Positions 11,586 to 55,678 of a DNA stretch of 64,000 nt are shown here, in pieces (position 1 is the first letter of the stretch; every line of letters begins with the position of its first letter). The DNA is taken from NCBI GenBank assembly GCA_035221665.1, contig JAVHYY010000086.1:434001-498000 (forward strand). Reading direction: 5' to 3'. This stretch comes from Okamejei kenojei. Taxonomy: Eukaryota. The translations under genes and the position numbers were made by a program. Under the pieces are notes generated by a model, which ran no database searches, was not told where the DNA came from, and saw only the letters and a program-made list of their open reading frames with translations.

Positions 11586-12449
11586 ATGAATAAGATATTA
11601 TACCACATAGGTAGAAAATAGATGGGTGACCACCAGTAAACGGATTATGGAGAAGTAGTCATGCGAAGGAGAATGATCAGAGGGTAGACGGGTGTATCGG
11701 CAGCAGGTCCACGGCATCAGGCACGGCTCAGAGCGGGGAGAGGGGAAAACAGACAGTGCGACAATCATAGGAGAGCCATTGCAGTGCGGGGGGGGGGGGG
11801 GGGGGGGGACGCAAAGAGAAGATTCAATCCACTATGCGACACACTCCAGGATGACGATTTTATTTCGTTGGGATCAACACGCAAACGGTTACAGAATATT
11901 CCAAACGCTATTTGAGGACACCGTATTATTTACTTGTCAGAAGCCTTTTTCACCCAATTCACATGATATGTTTCATTTCATGCAGCAACAGTAGTTCGTT
12001 TCGCTTTTAAGCCACATTGCTCAAACAGTATAATTTCATAAATCATTACAAGATTGAACAACATACTGTCCTTTGTTTATTCAGCAATTATGATGATGCA
12101 ATTAATTGTCGCTCCAGAGATTACACTGCAGTATAAATAGTTCTGAGAAGTTTGATGCAGAAATATCTTGACAGCTGATCTTGCTCACGGAAATAATGCA
12201 CGCACTTGGGAATGGACCGGTCTTTGCCATTTATTATTCGTTTCTTCACGTTTTCTGAGTTCCAGGTAAGAACAAAACATATGCACGTCGCCTTTCATTT
12301 AAAAAGCATTTTAAATCTGCCATTCAGCCACTTTCATCTGCAAGAATATCTCCGTCGCTATCTGTTTCTTATGATGTCGTGCGAAATCACGAATTCAATC
12401 AAGTTGTCATATACAAAGGAGTTTATAACATATAACATATAACAACTTT

Positions 12450-14695
12450 CGTCTAGGGAGGCTATTTGGGTGGAACTGAGAAGTGGGAACGGTGTAGCAA
12501 CACTTTTAGGGGTGTACAATATAGACCGCCAAATGGGGAGCGAGAATTGGAAGAGCAAATATGTAAGGAGATAGCAGATATTAGTAGTAAGCACAAGGTA
12601 GTGATTGTGGGAGATTTCAATTTCCCAAAAATAGACTGGGAAACACATTCTGTAAATGGGCTGGATGGTTTGGAGTTTGTAAAATGTGTGCAGGAAAGTT
12701 TTTTGCAGCAGTGCATAGAGGTACCGACCAGAGAAGGGGCAGTGCTGGACCTCCTGTTAGGAAATGAGGCAGGACAGGTGACGGAGGTATGCGTTGGTGA
12801 GCACTTCGGGACCAGTGATCACAATACCATTAGTTTCAATATAATTATGGAGCGAGTCAGAACAGGACCTAGAGTGGAGATTTTTGATTGGAGAAAGGCT
12901 AACTTTGAGGGAATGCGTGAGGATTTTAAAGGAGTGAATTGGGACACTTTGTTTCATGGGAAGGATGTAGAAGAGAAATGGAGGACATTTAAAGGGGAAA
13001 TTGTAATAGTACAGAATCTTTATGTCCCTGTTAGGTTGAAAGGAAATAGTAAAAAATTGGAAAGAGCCATGGTTTTCAAGGGAAATTAGACACTTGTTTC
13101 GAAAAAAGAGAGATATCTACAAGAATTATAGGAGGCATGGAGTAAATGAGGTGCTAGAGGAGTATAAAGAATGTAAAAAGAATCTTAAGAAAGAAATTAG
13201 GAAGGCTAAAAGAAGATATGAGGTTGCTTTGGCAAGAAAGGTGAAAGTAAATCCAAAGGGTTTCTACAGCTATATTAATAGCAAAAGGATAACGAGGGAT
13301 AAAATTGGACCATTAGAGAACCAGAATGGACAGCTATCTGCAGAGCCAAAAGAGATGGGGGAGATATTGAACAATTTCTTTTCTTCGGTATTCACCAAGG
13401 AGAAGGATATTGAACTCTGTGAGGTAAGGGAAAAAAAGTAGAGTAGCTATGGAAACTATGAGATTCAAGGAGGAGGAAGTACTGACACTTTTGAAAAAAT
13501 ATAAAGGTGGATAAGTCTCCAGGTCCTGACAGGATATTCCCTAGGACATTGAGGGAAGTTAGTGTAGAAATAGCAGGAGCTATGACAAAAATATTTCAAA
13601 TGTCATTAGAAACGGAAATAGTGCCGGAGGATTGGCGTACTGCGCATGTTGTTCCATTGTTTAAAAAGGGTTGAAAGAATAAACATAGCAATTATAGACC
13701 TATTAGTTTTGACGTCAGTGGGTGGGCAAATTAATGGAAAAGGATACTTAGAGATAATATATATAAGCATCTGGATCAACAGGGTCAGATCAGCAACAGT
13801 CAACATGGATTTGTGCCTGGAAGGTCATGTTTGACAAACCTTCTTGAATTTTTTGAAGCGGTAACTAGGGAAATTGATGAGGGTAAAGCAGTGGATGTTG
13901 TCTATATGGATTTCAGTAAGGCCTTTGACAAGGTTCCCCATGGAAGGTTGGTTCAGAAGGTTCAATCTTTGGGTGTTAATGGCGGAAGTAGCAAGATGGA
14001 TTCAACAGTGGCTGAATGGGAGATGTCAGAGAGTAATGGTGGATGGCTGTTTGTCAGGTTGGAAGCCGGTGACCAGTGGGGTGCCTCAGGGATCTGTGTT
14101 GGGTCCACTGTTGTTTGACATGTACATCAATGATCTGGATGATGGGGTGGAAAATTGGATAAGTAAGTATGCTGATGATACTAAGATAGGTGGTATTGTG
14201 GATAATGAAGTAGATTCTCAAAGTCTACAGAGAGATTTGGGCCATTTGGAAAAGTGGGCTGAAAGATGGCAGATGGAGTTTAATGCTGATAAGTGTGAAG
14301 TGCTACATCTTGGCAGGACAAATCAAAATAGGACGTACATGGTAAATGGTAGGGAATTGAGGAATGCTGTGGAACAGAGGGATCTAGGAATAACTGTGCA
14401 TAGTTCCCTGAAGGTGGAATCGCATGTAGATAGGGTGGTAAAGAAAGCCTTTGGTGTGCTGGCCTTTATAAATCAGAACATTGAATATAGGAGTAGGGAA
14501 GTAATGTTAAAATTGTACAAGGCATTGGTAAGACCAATTCTGGAGTATGGTGTACAATTTTGGTCGCCTAGTTATAGGAAGGATGTCAACAAAATAGAGA
14601 GAGTACAGAAAACAAATGGTCGGCACGGACTGGAAGGGCCGAGAGGGCCTGTCTCCGTGCTGTAATTGTTATATGGTTATATGGTTATATGGTTA
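12450..14695 (+). mobile_element. CR1 LINE ORF2 (endonuclease-RT) in the GPCR intron
   Basis: YRPPN, VGDFNFP, SDHN, DFSKAFDKVPH, GVPQGSVLGP, YADDTK motifs; (TATATGGT)n tail. Confidence 0.95.
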
Positions 14696-14699
14696 ACGT

Positions 14700-15600
14700 C
14701 AGCACATAAACAGGCCCTCTCAGCCCTTCCACTCCATGCCGACCATTTGTTTTCCCCTAGTCTCATCTACCTGCACTGAGACCATAGCCCTCCATTCCCT
14801 TACCGTCCATATAACTATCCACTTTACATTTAAATGTTAAAATCGATCCTGCCTCCACCACTTCTGCTGGAAGCTCATTCCACACAGTCATCACCCTCTG
14901 AGTAAAGAAGTTCCCCCTCACGTTACCCCTAAACTTCTGTCCCTTAATTGTCATGACATGCCCTCTTGTTTGAATCTTCCCTACCCTCAGTGGGAAAAGC
15001 TTATCCACGTCAACTCTGTCTATCCGTTTCATCATTTTAAAGACCTCAATCAAGTCCCCCCTTAACCTTCTGCGCTCCAAAGAATAAACACCTACCTTGT
15101 TCAACCTTTCTCTGTAACATAGTTGCTGGAACCCAGGCAACATTCTAGTCAATCTCCTCTGTACTCTCTCTATTTTGTTGACATCCTTCCTATAATTAGG
15201 CGACCAAAATTGTACACCATACTCCAGAATTGGTCTTACCAATGCCTTGTACAATATTAACATTACTCCCCTACTCCTATATTCAATGCTCTGATTTATA
15301 AAGGCCAGCACACCAAAGGCTTTCTTTACAACCTATCTACAAGCGATTCCACCTTCAGGGAACTATGCACAGTTATTCCTATATCTCTCTGTTCCACAGC
15401 ATTCCTCAACCCCCTACCATTTACTATGTACGTCCTATTTTCATTTGTCCTGCCAAGATGTAGCACTTCACACTTATCAGCATTAAACTCCATCTGCCGT
15501 CTTTCAGCCCATTTTTCCAAATGGCCCAAATCTCTCTGTAGACTTTGAAAATCTACTTCATTATCCATAACACCACCTATCTTAGTATCATCTGCATACT
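14700..15600 (-). mobile_element. CR1 LINE 3' fragment, same family, tail-to-tail with the previous copy
   Basis: YADDTKIGG..KCEVLHLG..LERRRLRGDLIEVFK..FFTQRV. Confidence 0.95.
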
Positions 15601-17825
15601 TATTCTGTTGCCAATCCTGCAAGAATAAACAAATATTCTGTTGCCAATCCTGCAAGAATTAAATGCTTTTTTTTCACCCTCCTTTTCTGACAAGTCAGCA
15701 AGCTGTTAAATGGGAGTATCTGTATTTTCTGATCAGAGACACAAAGGTATTATTGGAAGCAGAATTGAATTATTTTAAATTGTCTCTCTTCTCCGAAACT
15801 CGCCCTACAAAAATGCCGGTATCATTTACAGAATTTGGTGGCTGATGTAGCACCTTCGATTATATCATTTATTCGAATTACACTTCGGATACAATTTGAC
15901 TCAATACTGTTCTGAATGCAGACATTGAATCAATTTCATCTACCAAGGTTGTTTTCTTGTTTGCTGACCGCATTTGTCAGCTGTTTACAAGTAACGTTAT
16001 TACGAAGCGCTCTTGTTAGTTTCGCATGGAGATGTATCATTTTATTTAATTTTCACACACAGTATTCTAAGTTATCTCTCCTCCAATTAACATCGTTTTT
16101 TGCTTGCAGTATGATGTGCTAATGGATTGATATTTTCTTATTTTTTCAAAAACTTGTCATTATGTTTGGGAAGGTAGTCTTTTGTATTCCATTCCATAAC
16201 CCTACGCGGGCGTGGCATGAGCCTAACAAAGCACAATATATTTGGTGATTAGCTGAATCGTCTAAATAGTATACGGATGTCAATCCATTGGCTTTATCGG
16301 TGGCGGACTGATTATCAATGACTTGCTTTATTATTTTGTTTTGCAGCGAATTTGGTGACGATTGTGATTTTGTCCCAAGGAAGATGCGGCATCTCGAAAT
16401 GCATAACTCGTTACCTGGTCATGGCGGTGGCGGATCTCTTGGTCATTATCACTGCTGTGATATTAAGTCGGCTTCGAGCTATTTATTTCCCACTTACTTT
16501 CTTGTCCACCACTCCTGCCTGTAGTCTCGTTATTATCTTCAGCTGGATTTCAAAAGATACCTCAGTGTGGTTAACGGTCGCGTTCACGTTCGATCGCTTT
16601 TTAGCTATTGGCAGCCATAAACTGAAGCTTAGATACTGCACCGAGAAAACTGCGGCTGCGGTTATAGTAACCATCTGCGTGCTGGCGTCCTTGCGAAACA
16701 TCCCTTTATATTTTGAATAGGAGCCCATGTATGTCGTTGATAACGTACCCTGGTTCTGCAGCATTAAACCAGTCTTCTATACATTACTTGCATGGAGAGT
16801 GTATGAATGGTTGCACCGTATGTTAAATCCATGTATCCCATTCCTCCTCATTTTGCTGCTTAATGTTCTGACGATCAGACACATTCTAGCGGCCAGTCAG
16901 GCCCGCCGGAGACTCCGGGCGCAGAGCAACAGAGATAAACAGAGTGACCTCGAGATGGAGAGCCGGAGAAAGTCAATTATTTTACTTCTCTGCATTTTCT
17001 GGAGTTTTATTTTGTTGAGGTTGACCTATGATGTAAATTTCCTATTTGTGCAGGTTACAAGCAACATCTATCCACTGGTTCTAATTCCAATGACCCAAAA
17101 TGTATTCTTCAAGAAAGCGGATACATGTTAGAGATTTTTAGTTCCTGTACCAACACGCGTATTTATGTTGGGACACAGTCTATATTCAGGGAACAGTTGA
17201 AGGATGCCATAAAAATCCCTTCAATCTCATTACTTGCTGGTTCAAGTAGTGCACATAACAATTAAATACTGATAAGGACATGCAACTCTGAAACGACAAG
17301 TGCTGAAAAATTCGGACAAAGATAGCGCCGGAGCTTGGCGACGGTTTTGCGTGCTGATATCAAATTAGGATATACTGTCATCCGATACAATCTAGTTACA
17401 ATCTCTTTACTCTTTTTTGTTGTATTTTCTACCCATTGTAACTGAGTTTGGTTTGATTGTATGCGTGATAGTATGATCCGATTTGTTTGGAAAGCAAGCA
17501 AAACGACTTTTCGCTGAAACTCGAATCACATGGCACTAATAAAATTAGAAGCACACTTAACCCTCATTGAGATAGTCAACAGTCCCGGCGGAATTCATAT
17601 TAAAAAAGGTGTTCAAATTCGAATACCCATCATCACTCTATTCTGAAAATTAATTCTCAAAGTTCAGTAATAATAATTATGACAAGCGATTTGTTTATTC
17701 TGAACAGTGCAACGGAAATAGTACATTGGCAAGTAAACGGTTTTCCAATCGTGAGTATGTTTCGTGTTTTACCGCAAACGGAAACGTCATGCTCAGCCGC
17801 CAAATTAACGGCTGATCCGCCTATA

Positions 17826-19894: not shown

Positions 19895-19933
19895 AATTTT
19901 TGTACGAGGCAGTTCATAGATAGTAGCACCGTG
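19895..19933 (-). other. 23-spacer recombination signal sequence of V1
   Basis: CACGGTG, 23-nt spacer, ACAAAAATT. Confidence 0.92.
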
Positions 19934-20462
19934 TCTCTCAGCACGCAGTAATATAAGGCTCCGTCAGACAGCTGCACTCCAGCCAGTGTAAATGAACTTT
20001 CGCCTCTGGAAGTGTCGAGGGACGCGGAAATTCGAGCACCCACAATTTGTGCCGTGGAAATGTTTCCGAAGGATGGAATGAGAATCAGGAAGGTGAAGTC
20101 ACTGTTCGTTTTCTGACGGTACAGATTCAAAGAATACATATCAGCAGTAGTTGAATACTTGCAGTTTATTTTCACCGAGTCTCCTTCCATCGGCGTCAAG
20201 CTAGCCAGTTCCTGTGAGACGGAGTCTGTGGCAACGACACCTGCAATAATTTAAAAACACATAAGCATTTTGCATTTTCAATTAATACAGGCCAATATTC
20301 GTGGAAAAGGTTGGACATATTCAACTGAGATACATCAAAGTCTTTCCGGCAGGGAGGTTTTCGATATCAGCGACACCTGATAAGGAAACCCGTATACTTT
20401 GCGAGCTTACTTGTTAAAAGACCTGCAGCGAAACAAAATAAATGAACAACAACTGCGAACAT
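19934..20462 (-). CDS. TCR alpha/delta-type V segment V1 (leader 20462-20411, V exon 20240-19934); open frame but FR2 Trp replaced by Leu
   Basis: Leader MFAVVVHLFCFAAGLLT then GTAAG; V exon VVATDSVSQELASLTPMEGDSVKINCKY..LNLYRQ..VQLSDGALYYCVLR followed by a 23-RSS. Confidence 0.88.
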
Positions 20463-21380: not shown

Positions 21381-21761
21381 TATCTGCTATGATTTCTTGG
21401 AGACTGAAACACAGAAATCAAGAATTTGCCCAAATGGTCTTCACATCCTTAATCTGTTGCATCATTGAAAAATAATCCTGGTTTCACTCAGAGACGGTGG
21501 ACAGAGAGGGCTTCGTGTTTAATGCACAAAATGAAGATGCACTTGCCCTCCGTGAGGGTCCAAAGCCAATGATGTAGGTTTACGCAAATTGAGGGGTTCC
21601 TATTCCAAACGCCTGCGTTATTATTGATGAAACCTAATTCGGTAATCGATGGAAATTGAAGGGGCGGATAGAACGATTTCTGAAACATCAGAGGATCCAG
21701 AAGCTTTCTGAGCACATAAAATTAATTGGAACCGAACCCCCAAGATCTGCTGAGCGATTGG

Positions 21762-21801
21762 ACTTGTTGTACGAGAGTTTTTACTGGTTTTCAACACCGT
21801 G
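21762..21801 (-). other. Degenerate RSS of V2
   Basis: CACGGTG, 24-nt spacer, ACAACAAGT. Confidence 0.75.
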
Positions 21802-22330
21802 AGCGCCGCTGCGCACATATAAACCCCAGACGCCCTCAGCTGCAATTCTAAGATAGTCAGACTTGCGAATTTCGCCGAGCTCTAGTGAACTGCAGAGAAA
21901 CGCATTTTCGCAAAATCTGCCTCGTTCGCAGCTCCGCTGGTGTATTTGATCAGAATAAACTCAATCTGTGTGTCTGGGTGCTGCCGATACCAGAGCAGAT
22001 TATTGGTGCCGCTCCATGTTGTATGGTTGGTACAGTTTATAGTGACCTTTCCTCCTTTCATCTCCACGACCTAAGACAACGGATCAGTGGCAGGATCCCC
22101 GTGGCCTCGACCTGCGTTCAAAGCGTTGAAAGCAATAATACATCAGCGCGGCGAATATAACATACGATGGAAATCGGCATCCGCGGAAAACGAGGAAATG
22201 AAAAGTGTGTGTTGCAAGTTAGGAAGAATGGATTCCTCCCGGGGCAGGGTTAACATTTTTTTTTACTGGGAAGAAAATCCTTACCAAAGAGGGATACAAT
22301 GACGAGCAACGTCGCGAGGATATTGTGCAT
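21802..22330 (-). pseudogene. TCR alpha/delta-type V pseudogene V2 (leader 22330-22285, V exon 22111-21802)
   Basis: Leader MHNILATLLVIVSLF then GTAAG; V exon GRGHGD..KVTINC..LLWYRQHPDTQIEFIL..LTILELQLRASGVYMCAA; TAG stops at 22071-22073 and 21882-21884. Confidence 0.9.
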
Positions 22331-23803
22331 GATCTTCTCCGAGTCTGTCATTTTTCTGACTCAGAGTCCACCAGTTCCAAGTGGTCTGTAGTTATCGCCG
22401 CACCATTCGCCCAGCCGAGGAGTCAATAAATGGCAAACGGGCAGCAAAGCCAGCTGCCCCCCGGATAACACAGGTTATATAACAATAAGGCGCAGAGCAG
22501 TAAACTGGACCTGATTTTAAGTCGGCCACTGTATTCACACTGAACGGATTGCAGGTATTGAAAACCCATGGGAAGTGGCGGTTCCTGCGATTAGTGGCAT
22601 CCGCAGTTGAAATTCATTGGTCGTAAAGCAAGCTGACGGGCTTCGCATGCTTCGCCGTGCTTCGTCCAGCTTTACCGAGCTGCCCATTCACTACGTCAGA
22701 GAACCGGATTCGATCCTAACCTCCAGTGTCGTCTGCATGGAGTTGTCATGTCTCCCGAGCGACTTATGGGTAAACGCTTTTCTCGCACGCCTTATGAACG
22801 TCAACAGACACATCATAGAAAACATACTATCGGTTAGCATCAGAACATCGTTTGAGAAAAGCCCAAGACTGCAAGAATTTTCCGAGCGTTAAAGATGTAG
22901 CGTCTGACTTGGGTGATTGTTTTATGTGTGTTTATATCTGATCTGTTTGGATCACTAAACAAGATTTGTCATTCTACCTTGATATACGTACAACAATAAA
23001 TCTCAATGTAAATCAAAGACAAGCGGGTTTGTGGGTTAATTTGACTTTGCAAATACCCTCTGGATGCAAACGTTGGATGACATCGAACTGGTATGAACGC
23101 ATGATTGATGATGGGGGGTGCTATGCTGTGTCAATGCTGTGTTTTCCAATGTCAACAATTAAACTTTAAAAAGATAGAAAGGAAGACATACCCGAGATTG
23201 CTATCTAATGGCGACCAATAATTCTAACAATCATAATGATAATGATGCTCATCACCACTTATTGTCATGTAGCTGGTAGAGTGAAATTATTTGCTTTGCA
23301 TGCAATCCAGTGTAACACGAAAAATATAGTACGTAAAAAAAACACAACGATTATAGTGTAATAGTTACCTTCACCGAGACGCTAGACACAAAGAGTCGTT
23401 ATGTTTCTGGCGCCAACAGAACTTCAAAGTGCTTAACAGTACAGATCTGTTTTGGCGAAAAAGACCGATTGGCCTAGCGGCATCTCCTTCTTCCGACGCC
23501 ATATTGGATACGGCCGTTTGGCCAACGTCCGCGGCCATCGCCGACATTACGGTGTTATTTAGTTGGTATGACTTTAATTCCACAGCATGTATTATGCCGT
23601 GTTTGGTGCGCATGAACCGGTTCACCAAACGTTTACTGTAACCATTGCCGAAATCGCAGTCGTAGCTGCATTTGCGATGAGGGTGCCTCCCTCATCGGAA
23701 TATTAATTATTAATGAAATGGATGAAGCGGCGGGCTGGTGATGGAGGCATGAATGGATGTGCAAATAGAATGTAATATTTGCGTGAAGGAAACCTAAGGT
23801 ATT

Positions 23804-24719: not shown

Positions 24720-25980
24720 ATGGGAGTTCTTGTACTCGCTGCGCTGTGGATGAGGTTCATCGTCGGTAAGGCGGTTATGATTTTCCCCAATATAACTACC
24801 GTCCTGAGGTCTGGAGAGCAGACCAATTTCACAGTCACAGAGATTCAGAGGAAAGACACAGATATACACAAAACCCTGGATTGCCTGACCACTGGTCGGA
24901 TCTGTTGGGATGAGTAGTTTTCCCGTTTGGTAGGAAAGCCGTAGGCACCAATCACAAAATGAAATTATGATTGCATGGAGATGAAGACAATGCATTCACC
25001 TGTGCGATATTGGCAGCAAATGCAATTGAGCATCAAACCAGTTGATCCATGATAAATTGCGCGATTTGTGGCGTAACTTCTTCATCTGCAATAGAAATAA
25101 AAATATGCCAGTCGGCTGGAAAAGATGCAGATATCACTTGCGACGATATTTCCATGAATCGAGAGCCTGAGCTACAGGGATAGCTTAGGCAGGCGACAAT
25201 TCCTTGGAGCGCAGAAGGTGAGTGGTAATAGTCGGACGTGTATACATTAGGAGGGGGCATTGAGAGTAGCAGGAGAATGAAGATTCCGAGCGTAGGTTTA
25301 AGGTGCGAGCGTAAATGGCCACTTCTTCCAAAGCGGGCAGTGTGTATATGGACCGAGCTACCAAATGATGTAGGTGAAACTGATAGCTGAATCGGGTGTC
25401 AGGGGTTATGTGGGGATTCCAGGATAATGGGTTAGGAGGGAGTGATCTATCAATCGTGATCGAATGGCGGAGTACACTTGATGGTCCGAATGGCCCAATT
25501 GTGTTCCCATCACTTATGACCTGATGCGCTTATGACAATAACAGCATTTAAAATAATTTTGAACTGGTAACGACCAGACAACTTTTAGAGAGATATGAGG
25601 CAAACATGGATACAGGGCTCTGGTTAAGATTAGGCAGCTCGATCGAAGTGTTTGTGTCTGTGTTGTTTGATTCGATGGATCGTCGTATCAGATATACTCG
25701 TGGAGTAACACATATGCTATCATCTGCAATGTAATGAACTATGTTAACTTGAATGTCAATATAGTTGCGTGCTTTCCCGCCGATGAGGATTATATTCAAA
25801 GTTATGACTAATGTTCTTATTTGGTGTCCCAGATCTCAGCAATGCCGATTCCGTGACACAACGAGAGCCCGCCGTCAGGCAGATGCAGGGCGATCATGTC
25901 ACATTTATTTGCACCTATACCAGTGATTCTTAATATTTACACTGGTATAGTTAGTACCCATGAATAAGGCCCGAATTCAT
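24720..25980 (+). pseudogene. TCR V pseudogene V3 (leader 24720-24765, V exon 25833-~25980), truncated at a CR1
   Basis: Leader MGVLVLAALWMRFIV then GTAAG; after cccAG the frame reads LSNADSVTQREPAVRQMQGDHVTFICTYTSDS*YLHWYS*YP*IRPEFI and meets a CR1 tail. The 3' half and RSS were not found. Confidence 0.82.
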
Positions 25981-29115: not shown

Positions 29116-29201
29116 CGAATTTCGTGACGATACAAAATTCTGTAGAAAGCAAGATGCGGCCTCTCCAAATGTATCACTCCCTACCTGATGTGCATGGCAG
29201 T
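29116..29201 (+). pseudogene. GPR139-like GPCR exon 2 fragment, copy 2
   Basis: After ctctcAG: cg aat ttc gtg acg ata ... aga tgc ggc ctc tcc aaa tgt atc act ccc tac ctg atg tgc atg gca (ANFVTI..RCGLSKCITPYLMCMA), then cut by a LINE tail. Confidence 0.8.
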
Positions 29202-29615
29202 AATAAATACTTTATTGACCCCCTCAGGGAAATTCAGATGTCCAGAAGCCCCCAACCAACCATGCATTCAAAACGAACGCAGACATAAAATACATAAAAT
29301 ACCATGTGGGCACTATCCGAGAGAAATAAATACATTAAAAATATTAATAAGCAATTAAAAATTAAAACAATGAACAAATGCACCCCCCTACAGCCTAGCG
29401 GTACGATTTATAACATCTAATGGCTGCAGGGGTGAACGATCTCCTGAACCGTTCTGTTCTACAGCGCAGGGAGAGGAGCCGGTTCCGAGTGCTTCTTTTG
29501 ACTCTCCAGAACTACATGGAGGGGATGCCCAGGGTTTGCAGGGTGACCTGCACCTTGCACCTCATACGCCCGCTCTAGGCCTGCAAGATGGTTACAAAGA
29601 CTCTGTGTTACCGGC
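29202..29615 (-). mobile_element. Rex1/Babar-like LINE 3' fragment
   Basis: The minus strand encodes CRTERFRRSFTPAAIRCY; tail ..ggggtcaataaagtatttatt. Confidence 0.7.
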
Positions 29616-30113: not shown

Positions 30114-31501
30114 ATGGAGATCGTCATTCTGATTACTCTCATTGTATGTTTCCTTGGTGAGTAGCTCTCAGAGGAGCATGGGATAAAGAAATAACATTTC
30201 CCCGATGAGTCCACGATTGATTATTGGTTCTCGATAATTTAACGGCCGGGGCTCCACAGATGATCCGAGTGACTTCTCCATTGGTGTTGTGTTTAAAGTT
30301 GGTAACGTAGCGGAGGCCATGTTCCACTCCGCAGACTAATCAATATAATCTGCATTTGCTTCACCATTCTCCCGCCATCCACCCCCCCCCCCTCCACTGT
30401 AACAGTATATCCGAGCCAACACTCCCTGAAGGACATGGTCCTGTGCTGTTGTGTTGTAGTGTTGTAGTGAATGGTTCCAAATCCGTCTGCCAATATTGTG
30501 CAGAGATGCCGTCATATGGATCTGCTGCAGTACAATGGGATGATAAAGAAGTTCTTGGGACCCTCTGTGGGTAACACACTTTAATTGACCACATTACATG
30601 CTGATGCAGGAAAGAACTGCAGATGTTGGCTTAAATTACGTGCTTAAACTACGTATTAGGTTTATTTATCACCTGCACTGTTGGACAGTGAGAAGCTTTG
30701 TTTAGCAAATTACCAATCAGATCAGATAATAAATAAATACGATCAAGGTCAACTTAAGTACGATTGATCGTGCAAACTGAAAGATGCCGTGTGAAAAATA
30801 TTATTCTCAGCATTGTAACGCACGTGTTCCAAAGACAAATTCCAATGCATGCAACGTGTAACTGTTAATTGGTCTCCCTAGTGTTTAGTAGGACTGCTCT
30901 GAATCCTGATAACAGGGCAGGGGAAACTGTTCCTGAGTCTGCTGGTGCGCGCTCCCAAACGTCTGTACCTTATGCCCGACGGGGACGGGGAGATGAAGGA
31001 ATGATCAGGGAGTGAGACATCTTTGATTATTTTGAATGCTTTTCCAAGACATCGTAAAGTGCTCATGGAGCCCTACAATTGACCCGGGGCCTATTCTTCC
31101 AGAGTGGCGTTTGTTCCAAGTTAACGACACAAAACATTTTTTGAGGATCACTTTTAACCAATGTTCCTTTTATTGTTCCTAAACCCGATCATAGGTCGTA
31201 GTCATGGAAATTCGGTAAGTCAACCACAATCATCAGAAAAAAAGAAAGAAGGCGAAGGGGTGATGCTTTCATGCCACTACAACACTGCAGAAAGCACTTA
31301 TTCTTTGTACTGGTACAGAAAACAAGCGGAGAATGAACCTGTGTTTATTGTGCGGCAGAAGTCTTGGAGGGGAGAAGAGAGAGGAGAGGGATTCGGGACA
31401 CGTTTCTTTTCGGAGCTGAACACAAAGACGAAGCGGAATAATTTAATGGTCACCGGGTTGCAACTGACCGACTCCGCCCTGTATTACTGCGCTTTCGAAG
31501 G
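30114..31501 (+). CDS. Intact TCR alpha/delta-type V segment V4 (leader 30114-30156, V exon 31195-31501)
   Basis: Leader MEIVILITLIVCFL then GTGAGT; after atAG: GRSHGNSVSQPQSSEKKKEGEGVMLSCHYNTAESTYSLYWYRKQ..GLQLTDSALYYCAFE. Both Cys and the Trp are present, there are no stops, and a 23-RSS follows. Confidence 0.95.
30880..31066 (-). mobile_element. Rex1-like LINE fragment in the V4 intron
   Basis: KIIKDVSLPDHS..SGIRYRRLGARTSRLRNSFP. Confidence 0.65.
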
Positions 31502-31540
31502 CACAGCGATGGAAAGTAGCTTCATATCAGTACGAAAACT
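31502..31540 (+). other. 23-spacer RSS of V4
   Basis: CACAGCG, 23-nt spacer, ACGAAAACT. Confidence 0.92.
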
Positions 31541-37900: not shown

Positions 37901-40728
37901 ACCACCGAAAAAACTGATGCATAGGTACAGATAATAGGCGTCTTTTTCATCAATCTTAGCCATATAACAACCTGCTGAATTAAATATTTTGCAGTATTCA
38001 ATGTCTCCATTTTAAAATGTTTGTATTCTACAAACTTATTTAGATCTGTAAGGTCCAGAATACTTCTGCAACCGCCATCTTTATTCATTCTAAAAATATT
38101 AAAACAAATTGATGCTCGTGTTCATAAGTTTTTTTCCATTACCCCTTTTCCAGATAATTGGGCAATTTGGACATTAATCTCTGCTTTTCAATTGCAAAAC
38201 ACGAAAACATAAGCAGTTTATTCTGTACAGGAGGATTAACCCCTTCTTTAAAAGTAATAGTGGTTAATGAAACTGCTTGTAATATATACCGATCAAAAGT
38301 AATAGTAAGCAGTCTTTATAAAACTTTTTGTAATCTCCCTCTAACTGGAGATTAATCCGCAGTTTCTTTAAGCATAGAACAAGTCTTTTAATTCCTCTCC
38401 ATATGAGCGTGGTGGTCTCCTTTTCCCCCCAATTCGGTAAGTATTTGGCTGTGCAGTACAATAAGACTTCCTTGACATATTTCTGCCTCTTTTTCCAAAA
38501 TCAAATCCCCTTCTGGGCGAAAATAACCTTTTTGTCCAAAGACAAAGGTTTCATGCAGCTAAAATATTTAACTTTTCATCCAATTTTAATAATTTAGGCA
38601 GATTACTCCAAACAGACAACCAGGAGCTTAAACACCACTTGCTCGACACAGGTATGCAAACCTTGGGTGAAAAATGGGCCAAATAGCCATTTACCTCATA
38701 CAAAATTTTCATAGAAAGAATTGCACAATAGCGTCTTTTTTTTTTTTTTCTCTTATCCATCTCCGCAAAAGCCATAACAGCAGCAGAATAATTTGTGAGG
38801 ATTTTTGAACCTCACTACTTGACGCTCTCATATTTGGGGTCATGGATGCCCATATCAACGGATAAACCGTAGGCACTTCCAATGAGGCACAATTTCTTGT
38901 GCTGTGCAATTTTTAATATTTCAATCATCACAGAAACATGAAGTTGGTGAGATACCAATATATTATATGTTGGCAGCTAGGTTTTCTTCCATAGCCTCAC
39001 CACTTCCTTCATATATAGCAAATTCTTTTGCTATCCCAGGCACATTTTGGCCTTTTTTTTTTTTTTTTTTTCTTTTTCTTTTTTATTTATTTTGTGTGTG
39101 CTTTCAAATGCAAATCACCATCAACAGGGTCTGCCTTCTGCAGCCCTAAATCAATTGGGATTTCATCCCATGAGACTTCTTCTTCCGGCCCAAATCCTGG
39201 GTCCGGAGTTCCAACTCCCAATTAGGCCCACAGCCATATTCAGAATAATTAAACCCCTCAGGGCTTTTTTAGGAACCTTCTGGGTACTATGACCCTAGTC
39301 TCATAATAAATTTGGAGAACTTTCTCCATATGCTCCATAATTAGTTCCACATAGTTTCATTATCTGGAGGACTTGCAATATCAGAGTCATCAAAACCACG
39401 GGCCTCTCAGATTTTTTTTTTTTTTTTTTTTTCAATTTTCGGGAGCATTTCTCTCCGTGGTTATCATTTTTGGAAACTAATTCGCTAACGGGTATATCTG
39501 CGGCCACCGGTATCGGAACCGGCTCCGCACTAGCTTTCCCGTATATTTATTTTTCACCCCAGGAAGCACTTTACCCGCGAATTTTCTTTTACTTCATAAT
39601 CTGTGCTATCCAGCACTTAACTTGACTCTGACTTGATTTAACATAACTATTACTGCTGGACCTACCCAGCGTCCGCTAAAACATCCCTACTTTGCTGCAC
39701 TTACCTGCGGGGCCGTTCCGACCGCTGCGAGGAGCTGCTCCTTACTGCAGCTCCTCCTTCCGCCGTCAGCGTTGACGTCATGCCGTTGCCAGCGTGAGGC
39801 GGGTTCTTCACGTAGTCACTCACGTGACTCCGAAGTAAAATTAGATTGAATGGGTATTGAACAGCGCCCCTCAATGTCTTCTGAACGTAATCTGCTTCCC
39901 CGCGTAAATGCACGATTTGGTGCAAGAACTGAGAAGCTCCAGCATGTATCCGCTTTCCTGTAGGATAAACTTTGGGTCAGCGGAATTGGAGTCGCTGGCA
40001 TAGTTATTGCTGGTCATTTGCACAAATAGAAAATTCGCGACGTACGTCAATCGCAACAGGAGAAAACTACCCGATATCGCCATGAGTAAAATGATAGTCT
40101 TTCCCCTGTTCTCCATCTCCGTGTCATTCTGTCGGTCTCCATTGCTCTGGGCCCGGAGCCTCCTGCGGGCTTTATTCGCCGTTAGGATGTATCTGACCGT
40201 CAGAACATTGAGTAGAAAAATGAGAAAGAACGGGACACATGGGTTTAACATCCGGTGCAGCCAGTCCTAAACTCTCCATGCAATGGAAGAGTAGTACATT
40301 TAGTTTATCGTGCAGAACCAGGGCACGTTATCAACCACGTACACTGGCTCGTATATAAAGTAAGAAGGGACGTTTTTGAAACAACCCAGCGCACAGACAG
40401 TTGCAATAACGGCTGCCGCGGTTTTTGTCCGTGCAATATCTGAGCTTCTGTCGGTGACAGCAAATGGCGATGAATCGATCGAAAGTGAAGGCGGCGGTCA
40501 ACCAAACAGACGTGTCCTTGGATGCCCAGCTGAGGAGAATAATACGTTTGCAGGCGGGAATGGTGGACAAATAACTAACGGGGAAATAAATAGCACGTAG
40601 CCGACTCAATATCACTGAAGTGATAATAACGAGGAGATCCGTCACTGCCATGAATGCAAGGTAGCTGGTGATACACTTCGTGAGGCCGCATATTCCTTGC
40701 ACCAGGATCACAATGGTCAACGCGTTCG
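34919..40728 (-). pseudogene. GPR139-like GPCR exon 2, copy 3 (40728-39839 plus C-terminal codons 34945-34919), split by a DIRS element
   Basis: After cacAG: ANALTIVILVQGICGLTKCITSYLAFMAVTDLL..FTFDRFIAICC..MLNPCVPFFLIFLLNVLTVRYIL..LLSSCT..YPFNLI, then DIRS, then KTWFKSYA*. Frameshifts present; exon 1 not located. Confidence 0.9.
34946..39841 (-). mobile_element. DIRS1-type tyrosine-recombinase retrotransposon, near full length, decayed
   Basis: Gag-like region, RT (ILDLTDLNKFVEYKHFKMETL), RNase H, methyltransferase-like region (DLYASRLN..YAFPPF) and YR (SYSAINTARSALS, HSTRAAATSA). Inverted terminal repeats, plus an internal complementary region at ~35172-35285 that joins copies of both ends. 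Confidence 0.95.
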
Positions 40729-41014
40729 CTGTGTGAGAGAGATCGAGAGATAGAAAATCCAGTAACGAAAATGACGTTTGCCTGTTACATCAACATGTTT
40801 GGAAGGCGACTATGCATTCGTATCCTTCACTGTTGACACCGCGATTGAAACACATCAGTTTAACGACGTACATTTCGCAGATCATTGCAGATCAATCTAA
40901 ACTTTAAAATTACTCTTAAATAATAGAGAGAAAGAAATAAGGCCTTGAAGAAAATTAAGGCGTGGAATTTCAAAACCAACAATGTCGGCAATAATGTGCA
41001 GGAAGGAATTGCAG

Positions 41015-46200: not shown

Positions 46201-46766
46201 CAAATCTTCAGGGTCAAGTTTTCAGGGTCAAATATCAAGTCTTCAGGCATCACCGCGGAGGCCCAATGGTAGGGTGTGTACAATAGCCATGCCATGCAGA
46301 GTAAGGTGGCAACAAATATAATTAACGCATATGCTGCTTCGGACTGATCGTCAAACGTTATCTGGAACACCGAAAGCTGCAAGAGCAGAATAGTAAACTG
46401 CAAAAACCGGGCCGTTCCCAGGCGCGTGCATTTTCCGTGTGAACGTAGAGCTGATCACTTGCACTCTGAAGCAAGCACCTTGCCCCATCTCATTATGCCA
46501 TGCGGCCGTCCCTGGGGCGGCTGTTGCCATGGATCACATGTGTTGTTAGTCACCATTTTCCGAACAAATAGATTATCGCTGATTTTAATGCTGAACCGAA
46601 TTAATCGACTAGAAAACACAGAGCTATGATAAGACGTGTTTGAAGACGTTTTGGATATTTTAGTGTATAAATGCAAATCATATGTGTACGAAGGAAGTAC
46701 TGCTGCTGGTTTAAACCGAAGATAGACACAACAAGCTGGAGTTAATCAGTGGACAGGCAGTACCAT

Positions 46767-48845: not shown

Positions 48846-49129
48846 AAGGAGCGTTCTCACTTGTGCCCTGTATAAATGCAGAAGGACATCTTTGCTCCAT
48901 TACTCAACTCGTCATGTTATGCACGCCAACACACCAATCGCTTTCTTCATTGCCTACTGTACCCGCATGCTTACTTTCAGTGATGATGAATAAGGACATC
49001 CAGATCACGTTGTATTTCCCATTTTCCTAACATGTGCCATGTGCATTCAGTACTAATGTACCTTCCTGTTTTAGCTTTGTGTTTCTAGTGCTGTGGCGGT
49101 TGCCTACCAACTGCGCCACAGTGATGGGC

Positions 49130-49960
49130 CACTTCGCTGATAAAAGCTACGTATGCCTAACATATAGTCAGTTTCATCGAAAGGTAGGGTTCCAGTTACA
49201 CTCCATGAGTGAGCAGGACCTTCCTGCCTGGTTTGTGTACCTGGGATTCCACTCTTCGACTATGGATGCTGCTCTCATCAGGGTATCTTCTAAATCACGT
49301 AGCTCTGCTCTCACTCCCCCTCCCACACTCGTAACAAGGGCAGAACACTGTCCTCACCTTCCACCCTACTAGTCGTCACATAAAATTAGATAATCCTCCG
49401 ATATTTTCGTCTCATCCAACGGGATCCAGCACTGGCCACATCTTTCCATCTCTTCCCTGTCAATTCGTCCCTTCCCACGAAAAACACCCTCTCCCCTGTA
49501 CTTTCCCTAGCAACAGCAGGAAATGCTTCACTTGTCGCTTTACCTCCCCCCTTGACTCCAGTCTTTCAAGGTCCAGCAGAGGTTAACCTGCACCTTCTCA
49601 ACCTTATATATAGCATCCGCTGATCTAGGCGTCAGCTGCTCTACATCGGTGACACCAAACGTAGGCTTGTGGATCGCTTCGCCCAACAGATTCGCTCAGT
49701 TCGCAATTTTCTCCCTGTTCTCCCGGTGGCTCAGTACTTCAACTCCCCCTCCCATTCCGAATCCGACATTTCTGTCCTGTGCCTTCTTCATGGGCAAGGT
49801 AAGGCCCACCGCAAATTAGAGGAGCAGCAACTCATATTTTGCTTGGGTACTTTACACCCCAGCAGTATGAATATCGACTTCTCCAATTTCAGGTAGTCCT
49901 TGCATTCTCCCTCTTCCCCCTACCCTTCCCAGCTCTCACACAGCCCACTGGCTCCGCCTA
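49130..49960 (+). mobile_element. Penelope-like element fragment (GIY-YIG endonuclease region)
   Basis: LLYIGDTKR.., DRFAQQIRSV..PVAQYFNSPSHS..RKLEEQQLIFCLGTLHPSSMNIDF. Confidence 0.85.
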
Positions 49961-50124
49961 TTCATTTCTTCTTACGGGTACGAAGATGTGAACCTCACGT
50001 GATATATACTTTCGCAGATGTTTCCTCTCATCGGCGGCTGTTACCATCCTCTTTCAGTAGGTTTTCTCTGAAGGGACGGCGCGTCATTTGCGTTCTCAAC
50101 ATTATTCTCTAGATGTTTTCCTCA

Positions 50125-50554
50125 ATGCAGCACAATCTATTTTCCATCTACATCGTGTTGATAATACGTAAGTGCTAGAGCTCTTCACAAATAATACACG
50201 GTCGTATTATTATTTGCCCTTCTGTAGTCTTCTGTAACGCGACCGCATTTTATGTATTTCCGTAGGTCGTTGTCTCTCGGACAGAATATCGCAGATTCCG
50301 CCTGTCATTATTGTCCAGACTGGAGAGTCGATACTGATCAATTGCAACCTATGAGAAATACATTTATTCCATGCAGTGGTACAGACAGAAAAGTGGAAAA
50401 GGATTAGAAAGGGTAATCAGGCGAAGAGCGGTTGGGAGAGAGATCAATGGTCGTTTTAAATTAGGATTTCGCACCTGCTGACAAGGGCGGCCAGTTCATC
50501 ATCGAGAGCATCGAACCCGCCGACACGGCGGTGTATTATTGCGCGACATATATG
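50125..50554 (+). pseudogene. TRAV-like V segment V5 (leader 50125-50167, V exon 50266-50554), two one-base frameshifts
   Basis: Leader MQHNLFSIYIVLII then GTAAG; V exon CLSDRISQIPPVIIVQTGESILINC/TYEKYIYSMQWYRQKSGKGLE..GRF../PADKGGQFIIESIEPADTAVYYCATY. The frameshifts could be assembly errors. Confidence 0.9.
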
Positions 50555-50593
50555 CACAGTGAGAGAAACCGCGGCGGTCCCCACACAAAAACG
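50555..50593 (+). other. Near-consensus 23-spacer RSS of V5
   Basis: CACAGTG, 23-nt spacer, ACAAAAACG. Confidence 0.96.
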
Positions 50594-50640
50594 TTTCTCC
50601 TGTTTACAGCTGCTGCCGGCCCTGACAGCGCCGGTTGTGC

Positions 50641-50945
50641 CTCCGTGGGACTCAACCCGCAGTAAAACACAACGGAGTCTCGTAGCTGCGTTTCAGACAT
50701 TGTCCGCGAGACGGTTAACTTCGAAAGATCAAGCGGCGCCGAAAACCATTTCCCTGGATGTTTCGCCACCTCGCTATACTTGTGTACGTGCAGAAGAAAC
50801 GCGATGGAGGCACCGGAAATCTGTCGGTACCACAATATATTCGGATGGGTGCTGATAGTTGTGTAATAGCAGTGGATCGGGACATCGGCCCCTTCATTTG
50901 CACTGACCGCAGAAGCGTTTGTTGCACGGAGTCTCCTGCACCATA
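50641..50945 (-). pseudogene. TCR V pseudogene V6, convergent with V5
   Basis: GAGDSVQQ../EGADVPIHCYYTTISTHPNILWYRQISG..TQLRDSVVFYCGLS, then heptamer CACGGAG (50641-50647). No nonamer; one frameshift; 5' end abuts a LINE and no leader was found. Confidence 0.85.
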
Positions 50946-50959
50946 AAAATTAATGAATG

Positions 50960-51815
50960 AATTAATTAATACGTCTATTGGCCAAGCATTCATACACAAA
51001 TAATTTGCCTTGGTGCTCCGCCCGCAAGTGACATTCAGTGACAGTTAGTAATGCCACATAAAATATTAAACAATAATAATAATAAAACATTATCGATTAA
51101 ACGTGCGAATTAAATAAAATACCAGTGCAAAAGGAGGGTACAGATTGTTGAGTAGAGCTGCTGGTTTTTGAGTAGAGCTACTACTCGTGGAAAAAAACTG
51201 TTTTTTATGCCTGGATGTGGCAGCTTTGAGTGTCCGGAGTCGCCTTCCAAAGTGATATAAAGAATTTATGGTCAGGATAAGAGGGGTCAGAGATGATCTT
51301 ACCCGCTCGCTTCCTGGCCTTTGTAGTGCGCGGTTCGTCAATGGAGGTAAGGTTGCAGACAACAACCTTCTCTGATCGGAAGTTTCGCTGCAGGCTCCGG
51401 ATGTCGTGCTTGGTGGCTGAGACAAACCTAGCCATGATGGAGAAGGTGAGGACAGACTCTGCCATGGCTGTAGAGAATTGGACTACCATTGCCCGTGTCA
51501 GATTGTGCTTCCTCATCTGCCGCAGCAAGTACATCCTCCGTTGTGCCCTTTTGACTGTGGAGTCGATGGTGGCGTCCCATTTATGGTCCTTGGAGATTAT
51601 AGTTCCAGGAACTTAAAACACTCCACAGATCTGACGGCGGTTTGTTAATGGTGAGTCGGGTGAGGGGAGGGGAAGCTCTCCTAAAGTCCACAATCAATCA
51701 CACTGTCTTAAGGGCATTGAGCGATGGCACCAGGATGCCAACTGTGTCATTTCCTGTCTGTAGGCAGATTCCTCCACATCCTGGATCAGTCCAATGAGGT
51801 TTGTGTCATCTTGGT
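50960..51815 (-). mobile_element. Rex1/Babar-like LINE 3' portion
   Basis: QRMYLLRQMRKHNL..ESVLTFSI, KIISDPSYP, TLKAATSRHK. Confidence 0.8.
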
Positions 51816-52299
51816 GGTACAGGGACATAGATTAAATCCTACAATGTCACTCCGGCTACTCACCGGGAAAACATAGAAACATAGAAAATGTGTGCAGGAG
51901 TAGGCCATTCGGCCTGTCGAACCAGTACCACGGGCTCCAACCCATTTACAGTGCGTTGTTAGTTGAAATACGACGTTATTTCGTACATTAATCATTCGAA
52001 TTATAGATCTAAACATCCGATGAACTCAGTGCACAGGAGAACCAGCGTTGTGATTAATGAAGAATCATTCTTCAATTTATTCAATAATTATGTTTCATGT
52101 CTGAAATGCGATATTGGCAGATGTTGCTATAGGTGTTGTTTCACTGTTGACATGTGCCCAGTTGAAGTGAAAACATTGTTTTGCGTGCCATCTTGTTGAA
52201 CCATCCATTCATAATTACAAAATACCATGCAGAATATAGTGTCACTGCCTCAGAGAGCGTTGGGATGTATCAGATGTTCAAGCGGCGCATCCAAGATAG

Positions 52300-53455
52300 A
52301 ATAAATGGGAGGTTATTTAAGACTGAGGTGAGAAAAAACGTTTTCATCCAGAGAGTTGTGAATTTATGGAATTCCCTGCCATAGTGGAGTGGGGAGCAAG
52401 TCACTGGATGGATTTAAGAGAGAGTTAGATAGAACTCTCGGGGTTAGTGTAGTCAAGGGATATGGGGAGAAGGCAGGCTCGGGTTATTGTCGATCAGCCA
52501 TGACCACAATAAATGGCGGTGTTGGCTCGAAGGGCCGAATCGCCTCCTCCTGCACCTATTTTTATGTTTCTATGTTTCTATGACAGTGGGGGTGGGCGAT
52601 CGGAAACACCGCCCCGCTGTTAAACGCAACCGTGACTTGAAAACTTATCAACTGCCTTCATTCATTAATGTGCATATATGTGAAGTTATCCACTTTGGTA
52701 GCAAAAACAAGAAGAAAGATTATTATCTAAATTGTATCAAATTGGGAAAAAGGGTAAGTACAACGGGATCTAGGGTTTTTTGTTCATGAAAGTAAGCATG
52801 CAGCTACAGCAGGCAGTGAAGAATGTGAATGCCATGCTGGCCTTCATAACAAGAGGAGTTGAGTATAGGAACAAAGAGGACCTCATGTAGTTGTATAGGG
52901 CCCTAGTGAGACCACACTTGGAGTAATGTGTTAAAGAAGGAACTGCAGATGCTGGAGAATCGAGGGTACACAAAAGGCTGGAGAAACTCAGCGGGTGCAG
53001 CAGGATCTAAGCAGCGAAGGAGATAGGCGACGTTTCGGGTCGAGAACCTTCTTCAGACCCGAGGATTATTGAAACATATAAGATTATTAAGGGTTTGGAC
53101 ACGCTGGAGTCAGGAAACATGTTCCCGATGTTGGGGGAGTCCAGAACCAGGGGCCACAGTTTAAGAATACGGGGTAAGCCATTTATAATGGAGATGAGGA
53201 AACCCTTTTTTACACAAAGATTTTTGAGTCTGTGGAATTCTCTACCTCAGACGAGGCCAGTTCTCTGGATAATTTCAAGAGAAGGCTAGATGGGGCTCTT
53301 AAATATACAGGGAGAAGGGGATGTGGTGGGGAAGGCATGGACGGGGTACTGATTGGAGATAATCAGCCATAATCACATTGAATGGCAGTGCTGGCGCGAA
53401 GGACCGAACGGCCTACCCCTCCACCTATTGTCCATTGTCTATTGTCTATTGTCTA
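52300..53455 (+). mobile_element. Cluster of CR1 3' fragments with a nested Penelope-derived short repeat (~52933-53060)
   Basis: FIQRVVNLWNSLP, CEVIHFG, RTRGHSLRIRG; (TATGTTTC)n and (TATTGTC)n tails. Confidence 0.85.
53025..53060 (-). ncRNA. Minimal hammerhead-ribozyme-like motif
   Basis: Minus strand GGGU-CUGAAGA-AGGUUCUCGACCC-GAAAC-GUC-GCCU. Confidence 0.62.
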
Positions 53456-55106
53456 CCCTCCCACATACCCTCATGAATGTGTGTGATCATTGGTGTGCTT
53501 CAGACAACGGTCATGTGAACATTACGCTTCGTCATCTATGTCAACGGTTAAGAAGTAAAGATAATGATGAATAGGTTTAAGCCTAACACAAGAATTGGCG
53601 GAGTAGGGCAGCTTGAACAGGAAAATCAAAGGAACTTGACACGGATCTTGATCAACTGGAAAAAATCCAATGGATAACTGATGGAATTTAAGTACTATGA
53701 GTTGCATAATGGTAAATTATATCAGTGAAAGACCGATTAGCAGGACCCCGGGTAGTGGTGGAACATTGGGACGAAGGGGTACAGGTGTATATACTTTCAT
53801 GAATGAGGCTACAAAGATAGACAAAAATGTAGTAGATAAATTACTTGGCCGGATTTCCTTCATCTTTCTCGCCACTGCGTACAATAATAAGTTGGAACGT
53901 CCTGCTCTAGTGGCCCAAGAGCTCGGTGCGTCCACATCGGGAGTTTTCTGTTCAGTTCAGGTCACCTTCGGCTAATTGTGTTGAAAATGAAGCAAATTGC
54001 ATTCCAGCCGCCCCCGCCGCGCTGGGAACCAAAGAGTTTCGGTGTAGCAACTCACCAATATGTTGCCTAATGCATGGAGCTAAACAACCCTCTCCCTGGG
54101 TTACTTAGCGCGGATTTGATTGACGGCAGTTCAATAACAACCGGTCAAATGCTTCGGCCAAAAATCACCGAATGTCGAGTACAGGTGATAACCTACCACT
54201 TCGTACCTTCGTTGTGTTGATTTTAACACCCGTGCCGATCGAGCTGCGGTGTATCCATCAACTCTATGAAGGCCAATTTATTTGAATAAATATTTCTGAG
54301 GATGCACATCAGCCATTAACGTAAGTTAATTATTTATGTGTGTTAATTTATTCAAGTTGCTGGTTTATTTTGTTTCTTCACGTTTTATGTCATCGAGTGA
54401 CGTTCCTTTATAGTAGTTTGTTGTGAAGCGACTTACTCAAAACATCGTGGGAAGTGCTAATGGGAAATCGATCTCCCCGCGATTTACATGGACGGGTACT
54501 CACGCATGTACGCACGGACGCCATTGCTTAATTAGACAAACATTTTGCGCAATGCTGATTTTTAATCAAAGTCAACAATGAGCCTTCGTCCCTCGGCCAC
54601 CGAACATTGAAATAAACACACAGGAATCTATGCAGGTATTTGATTTGTTAAAAGTACTGTTCTCAAATTTAAAGCAACCAACGATCAGTTCATCTAACAA
54701 GATAATTCCATCTATGTTTTAATGGACCGTTAACAAACAAAGAGGCATTGTAGACCAGACAGAAACGCGCAATGTGACTTGCTGGGAGGCTTGACTAGAA
54801 AATTTAACGGCTCAGGATAGGACGAGAAGAGGAAATATAGGGGAATCGATTTCCATAGATTTCGTTCATGGCGCATGATTATACGGCAGCTAGTTTAAAA
54901 GGACCGATATGGGAAGGAAAGTGTTGCCTCGGTAATGCGTTCATAGGATGCCCAGATGTCGCTGTGGGTATTATGAATTCCCTGTAGGATTTATGTCGGA
55001 GAATGAATAAAATGTACGGTTAAATGTTTGGCCAAGCCACGTAGGGAAGCTCGACCATGCAGGGTCATGTTGATTTGGGTTCTGATACAACATGAAGCTC
55101 GATGAA

Positions 55107-55678
55107 CTATATCCGAATAAACGCAAGCATATATTTGAATGCGTGCAGCAACTCTTCCCTGAACCTCCTCTTATTCACCATCTAAATGGCCGTGTTTGTG
55201 CATGAGCTCAGCAGGTGAAGCATAACCCCAATATCTTCAAACATTACAAAATGTCTGATGCAGGTCCTGCGTGCAGAGACTTTCACCAAGTTATGAAATT
55301 TGGCATAGATGTCGCCCAGCGTACGTTAAAGGCTACGGTCCGTGCGGTTCAGCGATTCTGTCCATATCTGTCACTCTATCCCGCGGCGGAGACAACGACG
55401 ATGAGTGGCCAAACATGGAACAACTCCTGCTGTCGCCATTGGCTACTGAAAACCGAAGAGCGCGCTGTACTATAACCACCAGCGTTATCTCAGACAATAT
55501 TTATTTTTTCATAGTTTAGGAAGAATGAATCTACACACAGGCGCCGTAATCTGATGTAATATCACCTCGCAGACAAACACCGAGAGTTCCGCTGTCGCCA
55601 TGGTCACCATGTACCGCGTGATGCATTTGGAGAGACCGCACTTTCCGCGCGACAGGACAACAACCGTCAACAGGTTCA
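55107..55678 (-). pseudogene. GPR139-like GPCR exon 2, copy 4 (divergent paralogue, internally deleted)
   Basis: After cctAG: VNLLTVVVLSRGKCGLSKCITRYMVTMATAEL.., later MLHLLSSCTNTAI*MVNKRRFREELLHAFKY. About 570 bp versus about 900 bp for copy 1 exon 2; the DRF region is missing. Confidence 0.85.

Follow-up and report, generated by a model that had tools for sequence, protein, structure and literature searches.

G-protein-coupled receptor genes of a large elasmobranch family lie among T-cell receptor alpha/delta V segments in the skate Okamejei kenojei

In mammals, the trypsinogen genes in TRB are a non-immune family that co-duplicates within a T-cell receptor (TCR) locus. Olfactory receptor (OR) genes (OR10G2 and OR4E2; Olfr1507-1509) are found among TRAV1 segments at the 5' end of mammalian TRA/TRD, according to the available part of PMC4574546. 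Here we describe a stretch of 64,000 nucleotides (the window) from the skate Okamejei kenojei (assembly GCA_035221665.1, contig JAVHYY010000086.1, positions 434,001 to 498,000), in which G-protein-coupled receptor (GPCR) genes are interleaved with TCR alpha/delta-type variable (V) segments.

As in mammals, members of a large family of class A GPCRs lie between TRAV segments (PMC4574546, available part). However, the mammalian ORs are just 2-3 genes at the distal edge, while the skate locus has at least 58 receptor copies (26 open), which extend through the V array to the end near the joining (J) segments and also occur within a repeated NAR-TCR (new antigen receptor TCR) unit. Also, the skate family is unrelated to ORs. 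The TRB trypsinogens differ in both locus and family, and in having far fewer copies. The skate locus resembles the elasmobranch complex of Flajnik et al. 2025 in having TCR alpha/delta V segments in both orientations, NAR-type V with diversity (D), J and a supporting V, and immunoglobulin (Ig)-like V near the delta segments (PMC12227049, available portions). GPCRs are not mentioned in the available portions of that article, which maps the elasmobranch locus, or of its two supplements; neither a receptor in a repeated NAR-TCR cassette nor a locus-restricted receptor clade is described there. The main value of our results lies in these two features and in the large, uncharacterized family to which the receptors belong.

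Extent and affinities of the receptor family

Using hidden Markov models (HMMs) built for this analysis, we mapped about 1.26 Mb: 486 kb on C176, 354 kb on C988, 336 kb on C241, and a further 80 kb on three small contigs. (C988 is the window's contig, with the window at C988:434001-498000; C176, C241, C15 and so on are other contigs of the same assembly.) Among the receptors in this sequence, the second exon is open in 26, and 32 are broken; V segments, including remnants, number at least 78, and both strands are intermixed. For these counts, the HMM failed to detect V5 of the window, exon 1 was checked for part of the genes, and the end of C176 and the start of C988 are possibly one place. 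The V exons are of the TRAV/TRDV type and have recombination signal sequences (RSSs) with 23-base spacers, as expected for TCR alpha/delta. C241 has a long J array (12-RSS) at 78-201k, additional J segments at 245-252k, and a D segment at 258k; its D and J segments include delta types, and it has two Ig-like V segments. Shared V families and paralogous segments suggest that C988 belongs with the C241 locus. We did not find C-alpha or C-delta exons in a C1-set search (150 of 269 candidates scored) or in a motif scan of C241:40-90k and 200-246k. DAD1 is on C4 and gives no anchor for the TCR locus.

The family extends far beyond this locus. Two exact family motifs had 389 and 419 matches, which are lower bounds, as compared to 2 and 0 control matches. 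Among the places listed (the first 100 per motif), the family is on at least 32 large contigs, and within C1-C29, 23 of the 33 listed clusters are within 7 Mb of a chromosome end. Similarly, a search with G1, the first receptor in the window, gave 1978 first-look candidates (150 scored), and a search with a clade-B receptor (see below) gave 2602 (132 scored). The 1.32 Mb of TRA/D-type sequence holds 40 of the 389 and 35 of the 419 motif matches, or about 200 times the average density of the genome. The earlier note on this DNA, which was based on the window's sequence, had proposed a test for enrichment near TCR/Ig V arrays, and this density is far beyond chance, yet it involves about one-tenth of the family. 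The broader idea that the family as a whole is V-linked is not supported, as roughly 90% of the motif matches are outside the TRA/D stretches that we fetched. Some members lie near other immune genes: a NAR-like V and Ig constant exons are found inside a large cluster on C15, family members are on either side of an MHC class I-like gene at C30:3817257-3867780, and C30:1.6-8.6 Mb is a mixture of many MHC class I-like genes and family genes.

A protein database search gave 2561 matches; among the 120 listed, all 118 with names are from sharks and rays, and no chimaera member was seen among the nameable rows. RefSeq labels most of the listed proteins "probable G-protein coupled receptor 139." Some database members are 464-1244 residues long and may be fused or mis-predicted models. 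The family seems to be uncharacterized, as had been proposed: beyond RefSeq's automatic name, we found no description of it in cartilaginous fish in the literature searched, which leaves out key shark TCR work and a catshark supplement that might mention it. GPCRs are not mentioned in the available main text of PMC10751288, PMC5931798, PMC10620051, or PMC10115646, and the string "gpr1" is absent from the available text of PMC11979771.

The earlier note took the receptors to be an expansion of GPR139/GPR142. However, this genome has true GPR139 on C22, and a clade of the family with GPR139 was rejected by the approximately unbiased test (p=0.00023; quick LG+G4 tree, 30 rows, with the genome's own GPR139 read from two pieces). 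Our trees are all quick ones without GPR142, and supports are from the Shimodaira-Hasegawa-like approximate likelihood ratio test (SH-aLRT). The family groups with a gene from amphibians and sturgeon (SH-aLRT 99) and then with coelacanth and teleost genes; it is 30-35% identical to the amphibian/sturgeon gene and 23-27% identical to GPR139 of the same genome. Thus, the family is a sister lineage rather than an expansion of GPR139. There is about one copy of the amphibian/sturgeon relative per amphibian species. This apparent single orthologue is labelled GPR139 by RefSeq, though it is distinct, and it is tractable for ligand finding. No amniote member was among the 25 database matches of one search. 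C22 itself has two frameshifted copies of true GPR139, at 1175152 and 1206402, 31 kb apart and near the chromosome end; the frameshifts are probably assembly noise.

GPR139 is nevertheless the nearest solved relative (the family's best match in PDB, E = 2e-13), and the family shares with the GPR139/GPR142 lineage a phase-1 intron ahead of the Asn of the first transmembrane helix. The receptors have the features of class A GPCRs: a 7tm_1 domain with N1.50, D2.50, D/E-R, N7.49, and Y7.53. All 88 non-pseudogene rows have N7.49 and D2.50, and all but one have Y7.53 (87 rows). Unlike GPR139, the family lacks P6.50 and R6.51, and the pocket differs. Most of the ligand-binding residues of GPR139 (positions from the available part of PMC5430874) are not kept: among the 88 rows, F3.33 is present in 10, H5.43 in 13, N7.38/39 in 17, and W6.48 in 70. 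A fixed activation core with a variable pocket is what would be expected for receptors tuned to different ligands.

Within the locus, the tree contains two main receptor clades, A and B. The tree was built from GPCR pieces of at least 170 residues and 31 of the 120 listed database matches; six chromosome samples in it are labelled broken, some possibly because a short stretch was fetched.

The window and its collinear counterpart

The sequence at 12196-55678 agrees with the gene order and strands that had been reported for the window: G1(+), V1(-), V2(-), V3(+), G2(+), V4(+), G3(-), V5(+), V6(-), G4(-), or four GPCR copies among six TCR alpha/delta-type V segments. The features are as follows.

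12196..12265, + strand: G1 exon 1 (clade A GPCR), with an in-frame TGA; open counterpart at C176:552998
16346..17252, + strand: G1 exon 2, pseudogene, with a one-codon deletion, TAG at 16718-16720, and a frameshift near 17073
19895..20462, - strand: V1, with leader, V exon, and 23-RSS; open frame, with Leu instead of the conserved Trp
21760..22350, - strand: V2, pseudogene, with two stops, a leader, and a weak RSS
24720..25980, + strand: V3, pseudogene, with leader at 24720 and V exon from about 25833, which has stops and is interrupted by a long interspersed nuclear element (LINE)
29116..29215, + strand: G2, GPCR fragment of about 100 bases, with acceptor, frameshift, CGLSKCIT, and truncation
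31195..31540, + strand: V4, open TRAV/TRDV-like exon with 23-RSS; leader not found
39835..40731, - strand: G3 exon 2 (clade A), a pseudogene that has frameshifts and stops; its counterpart at C176:582860 is intact
46362..46431, - strand: G3 exon 1, in which the donor site is non-functional
50114..50593, + strand: V5, pseudogene, with leader, frameshifted V exon, and near-consensus 23-RSS at 50555
50640..50945, - strand: V6, open V exon; heptamer without nonamer
55113..55678, - strand: G4 remnant (clade B type), with N-terminal piece at 55678-55542 and C-terminal piece at 55310-55113; the middle is gone

All four receptor copies are disabled, as the earlier note had stated, by stops, frameshifts, a dead donor, truncation, or loss of the middle. 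The phase-1 acceptor is also present in all four. The two shared protein motifs that had been quoted are valid for just three copies because G2 departs from them, having N-F-V-T-I-Q and, after a frameshift, KARCGLSKCIT. Both G1 and G3 have two exons (a LINE insertion lengthens the intron of G1) and match Pfam's 7tm_1 or the family HMM, with the first half of G1 scoring above Pfam's cut-off. The closest named relatives of the window's receptors are proteins from Leucoraja and Amblyraja. Among the V segments, V1, V4, and V6 match the V-set domain. The best matches of V4 in PDB are TCR alpha chains, and those of V1 are a mixture of TCR alpha and single-chain variable fragments; no full-length TCR chain turned up in a search with V4.

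C176:551-599k is collinear with the window, and on C176 the counterparts of G1 and G3 are open frames of 310 and 348 residues. Over the ranges that we fetched, 140 kb of C988 can be aligned with C176, at 87% identity. In each of two samples, contigs with the TAG form of G1 and contigs with the intact form were both found, and their depths were similar (6.3 vs. 10 and 41.9 vs. 40.5). Given the open counterparts, the similar depths, and the level of identity, the window is best read as a decaying duplicate, with an old haplotype as the alternative. The window would then be part of one copy of a collinear block of over 250 kb whose receptor genes are in decay.

We also considered whether assembly errors or an error-rich haplotig could have created a false impression of disabled copies and of a duplicate block. 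The assembly does have indel noise in places, such as the frameshifts in both C22 copies of GPR139, and one sequencing run listed only the non-frameshifted form at 17073. In addition, the end of C176 (700-726k) matches the start of C988 (7-30k) at 94-97%; this also suggests that the two V arrays are next to each other or have a repeated unit in common. However, the differences between C176 and the window are mostly substitutions (33 in G1 and 38 in G3), the identity of the block is only 87%, and TAG and intact forms occur together in two samples. Furthermore, GPCRs and V segments are interleaved on C176 and C241 as well. An artefact is thus highly improbable and already largely refuted.

A few other observations concern the window. 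V5 and V6 are tail to tail with about 50 bases between them (50266-50945); in the collinear block of C176, V6 has a nonamer and V5 was not detected. An RSS-like match at 24836 was discarded, as it falls inside the intron of V3. At 1009-8323 there is an endogenous retrovirus with 650-base long terminal repeats that are 98.2% identical and an env-like frame (TLV_coat); it is a young insertion within the V array.

Two receptor clades in the V array

Clade A (40 rows, SH-aLRT 100) includes proteins from horn shark, zebra shark, catshark, sawfish, stingray, and devil ray. Its median ratio of nonsynonymous to synonymous substitution rates (dN/dS) is 0.15 (55 pairs of 11 genes), which indicates purifying selection. 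With the open frames on C176, this bears out the suggestion that intact paralogues exist outside of the window. In clade B, the median is 0.34 (115 pairs of 16 genes), so constraint is weaker; five other open genes were removed by a motif filter. Ten of 12 skate clade-A receptors could be scored at position 6.48, and nine of the 12 have Arg there, in place of the Trp found in GPR139 and in most of the family.

There are two weak hints of synteny for clade A in other species. The catshark protein is on a sequence of 133,841,611 bases, and the published genes of catshark's antigen-receptor chromosome reach 133,540,320; the accession of the sawfish protein is 229 numbers away from that of sawfish IgW. 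The several RefSeq isoform records for the stingray and catshark genes suggest putative transcript support. Four low-confidence runs, of RNA or DNA, that we compared to an intact C176 gene and its V neighbors gave short pieces of paralogues or repeats and no spliced joint, which is uninformative either way.

For the clade-B copies in TRA/D, the nearest relatives (among 132 scored) are on C43 (84-85%), C20, C3, and C5, and we detected no V segments in the 140 kb of C43 and the 60 kb of C20 that were covered. One branch of clade B, though, is within a 21-kb unit that occurs four times on C241 and comprises a NAR-type V, D, J, a supporting V, and, on the opposite strand, a receptor pseudogene (all four receptor copies are pseudogenes). 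Units with a NAR-type V, D, J, supporting V, and matching RSSs, which we classify as NAR-TCR, are found four times on C241, once on C176, and once on C988. Complete cassettes are at C988:429199-432136, which is 2-5 kb upstream of the window, and at C176:507406-510333.

The earlier note had suggested that V segments and receptors expanded together, possibly as V+GPCR cassettes. Such cassettes do exist in parts of the array, but they are not the general pattern. Two V+GPCR units were co-duplicated (C176:407-415k to 418-427k and C241:317-331k to 369-384k), as were the four units of NAR-TCR with a GPCR, and the 140-kb alignment represents duplication of a whole block. But there are also duplications of V alone (C176:251-293k) and of GPCRs alone (C176:428-447k and C241:358-375k). 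Across 35 V segments and 22 GPCRs from C176 and C241, the similarity of V segments was weakly correlated with that of the neighboring GPCRs (rho = 0.10, p = 0.03, permutation test), but not if NAR-TCR cassettes were excluded (rho = 0.065, p = 0.20).

Why receptors and V segments share a locus

We consider it probable, though by no means settled, that the sharing is passive: two families with birth-and-death evolution are in one region that is prone to duplication, and the receptors travel along as passengers while having sensory or endocrine work of their own. The V segments of TCR alpha/delta and GPR139-related receptors that expanded in elasmobranchs occupy one chromosome stretch, where duplications, likely by unequal crossing-over, copied the V alone, the receptor alone, or both; the receptors are therefore likely passengers and not components of V(D)J recombination. 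We predict that the intact receptors function as class A GPCRs for different small molecules, which, by analogy to GPR139, may be amino acid- or peptide-like. Their expression would most likely be outside of T cells, with no immune role. Results in favor of passive sharing are the genome-wide spread of the family, close clade-B relatives on contigs where the covered stretches lacked V segments, the varied kinds of duplication, the lack of correlation outside NAR-TCR cassettes, the decay of all four cassette-borne copies on C241 and the weaker constraint on clade B, the family members beside an MHC class I-like gene, and the fixed core with a variable pocket. Several results weigh against passive sharing. 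Of 16 exact matches to the exon-1 motif of clade A, 13 are on C176, C241, or C988; two are at C15:57.43-57.44 Mb, where the pair adjoins two V segments; and one is on C955, within a duplicate of the G3 segment. (Among 11 matches that have one mismatch, nine are outside the TRA/D-type contigs and C15:57.43-57.44 Mb.) Pure hitch-hiking does not predict that clade A would include both sharks and rays or be so strongly conserved. Also, a listed family member is within 0.5 Mb of four of 22 C1-set (Ig/MHC) clusters (p = 0.0004 vs. uniform placement, p = 0.049 if matched for distance to chromosome ends), although this test is rough, with incomplete lists and interpolated lengths. That association is modest; it is partly explained by the subtelomeric position that the family and the clusters share, and most Ig clusters have no listed family member nearby. 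The restriction of clade A to the locus and the clade-B receptor inside a repeated NAR-TCR cassette both favor the earlier note's view of V-linked receptors.

One form of that view is that clade A was retained because it is expressed in T cells, developing or mature, under the control of the locus, with V-J joining deleting or inverting receptors to give clone-specific sets. Clade A is limited to the locus and its C15 neighbor, predates the shark-ray split, is under purifying selection, and usually has Arg instead of GPR139's Trp at 6.48. The geometry also fits, as had been suggested: on C241, five open receptors (337-405k) have the J array on one side and V segments of the same strand (from 417k upward) on the other. 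V-J joining would thus remove these receptors, although this follows from their position and not from observation. However, tandem clades can remain at their birthplace without any functional tie, and the strands of the receptors are mixed relative to the V segments. Also, alpha-beta T cells rearrange both of their alleles, and most clones would therefore lose the J-proximal copies. We view this scenario as quite unlikely. Combining it with the rest of the family, so that elasmobranchs have several hundred or more GPR139-related sensors and one ancient, conserved clade has been in TCR alpha/delta since before the shark-ray split, is activated in T cells by the locus, and loses members through V(D)J deletion such that the set of small-molecule receptors differs from clone to clone, is very unlikely. 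Or, the receptors might be a chemosensory repertoire that fills the role of ORs in bony vertebrates, with a location in TRA/D that is convergent with the mammalian OR-TRAV arrangement and favored by silenced, one-gene-at-a-time chromatin to which both families are suited. Hundreds of compact two-exon genes in clusters, with many pseudogenes, a fixed core, and a variable pocket, would suit such a role. Catshark has few genes for ORs or trace amine-associated receptors (TAARs): 8 OR or OR-like, 3 ORA, 3 TAAR, and 2 TARL genes (PMC11979771, available part). In human, mouse, and sheep, OR genes and TRAV1 are intermingled (PMC4574546, available part). On the other hand, no GPCR is among the top 50 genes of a library from catshark brain and olfactory epithelium (PMC11979771, available part), and a sensory role fits passive sharing too, with selected co-location as the sole difference. 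Chemosensory selection for this location seems unlikely, and we continue to prefer passive sharing.

Whatever their role, these receptors change the map of the oldest TCR alpha/delta locus, as receptor genes lie between V segments and inside the NAR-TCR repeat. Because they fill the space between V segments and ride the repeat, they can be used to date duplications of the V array. The family may rank among the largest GPCR families of elasmobranchs, under RefSeq's label of "probable GPR139," in animals with very few ORs or TAARs. Finally, with a second, unrelated GPCR family in TRA/D, the mammalian mix of ORs and TRAV segments looks less unique, and whether such loci attract each other becomes testable.

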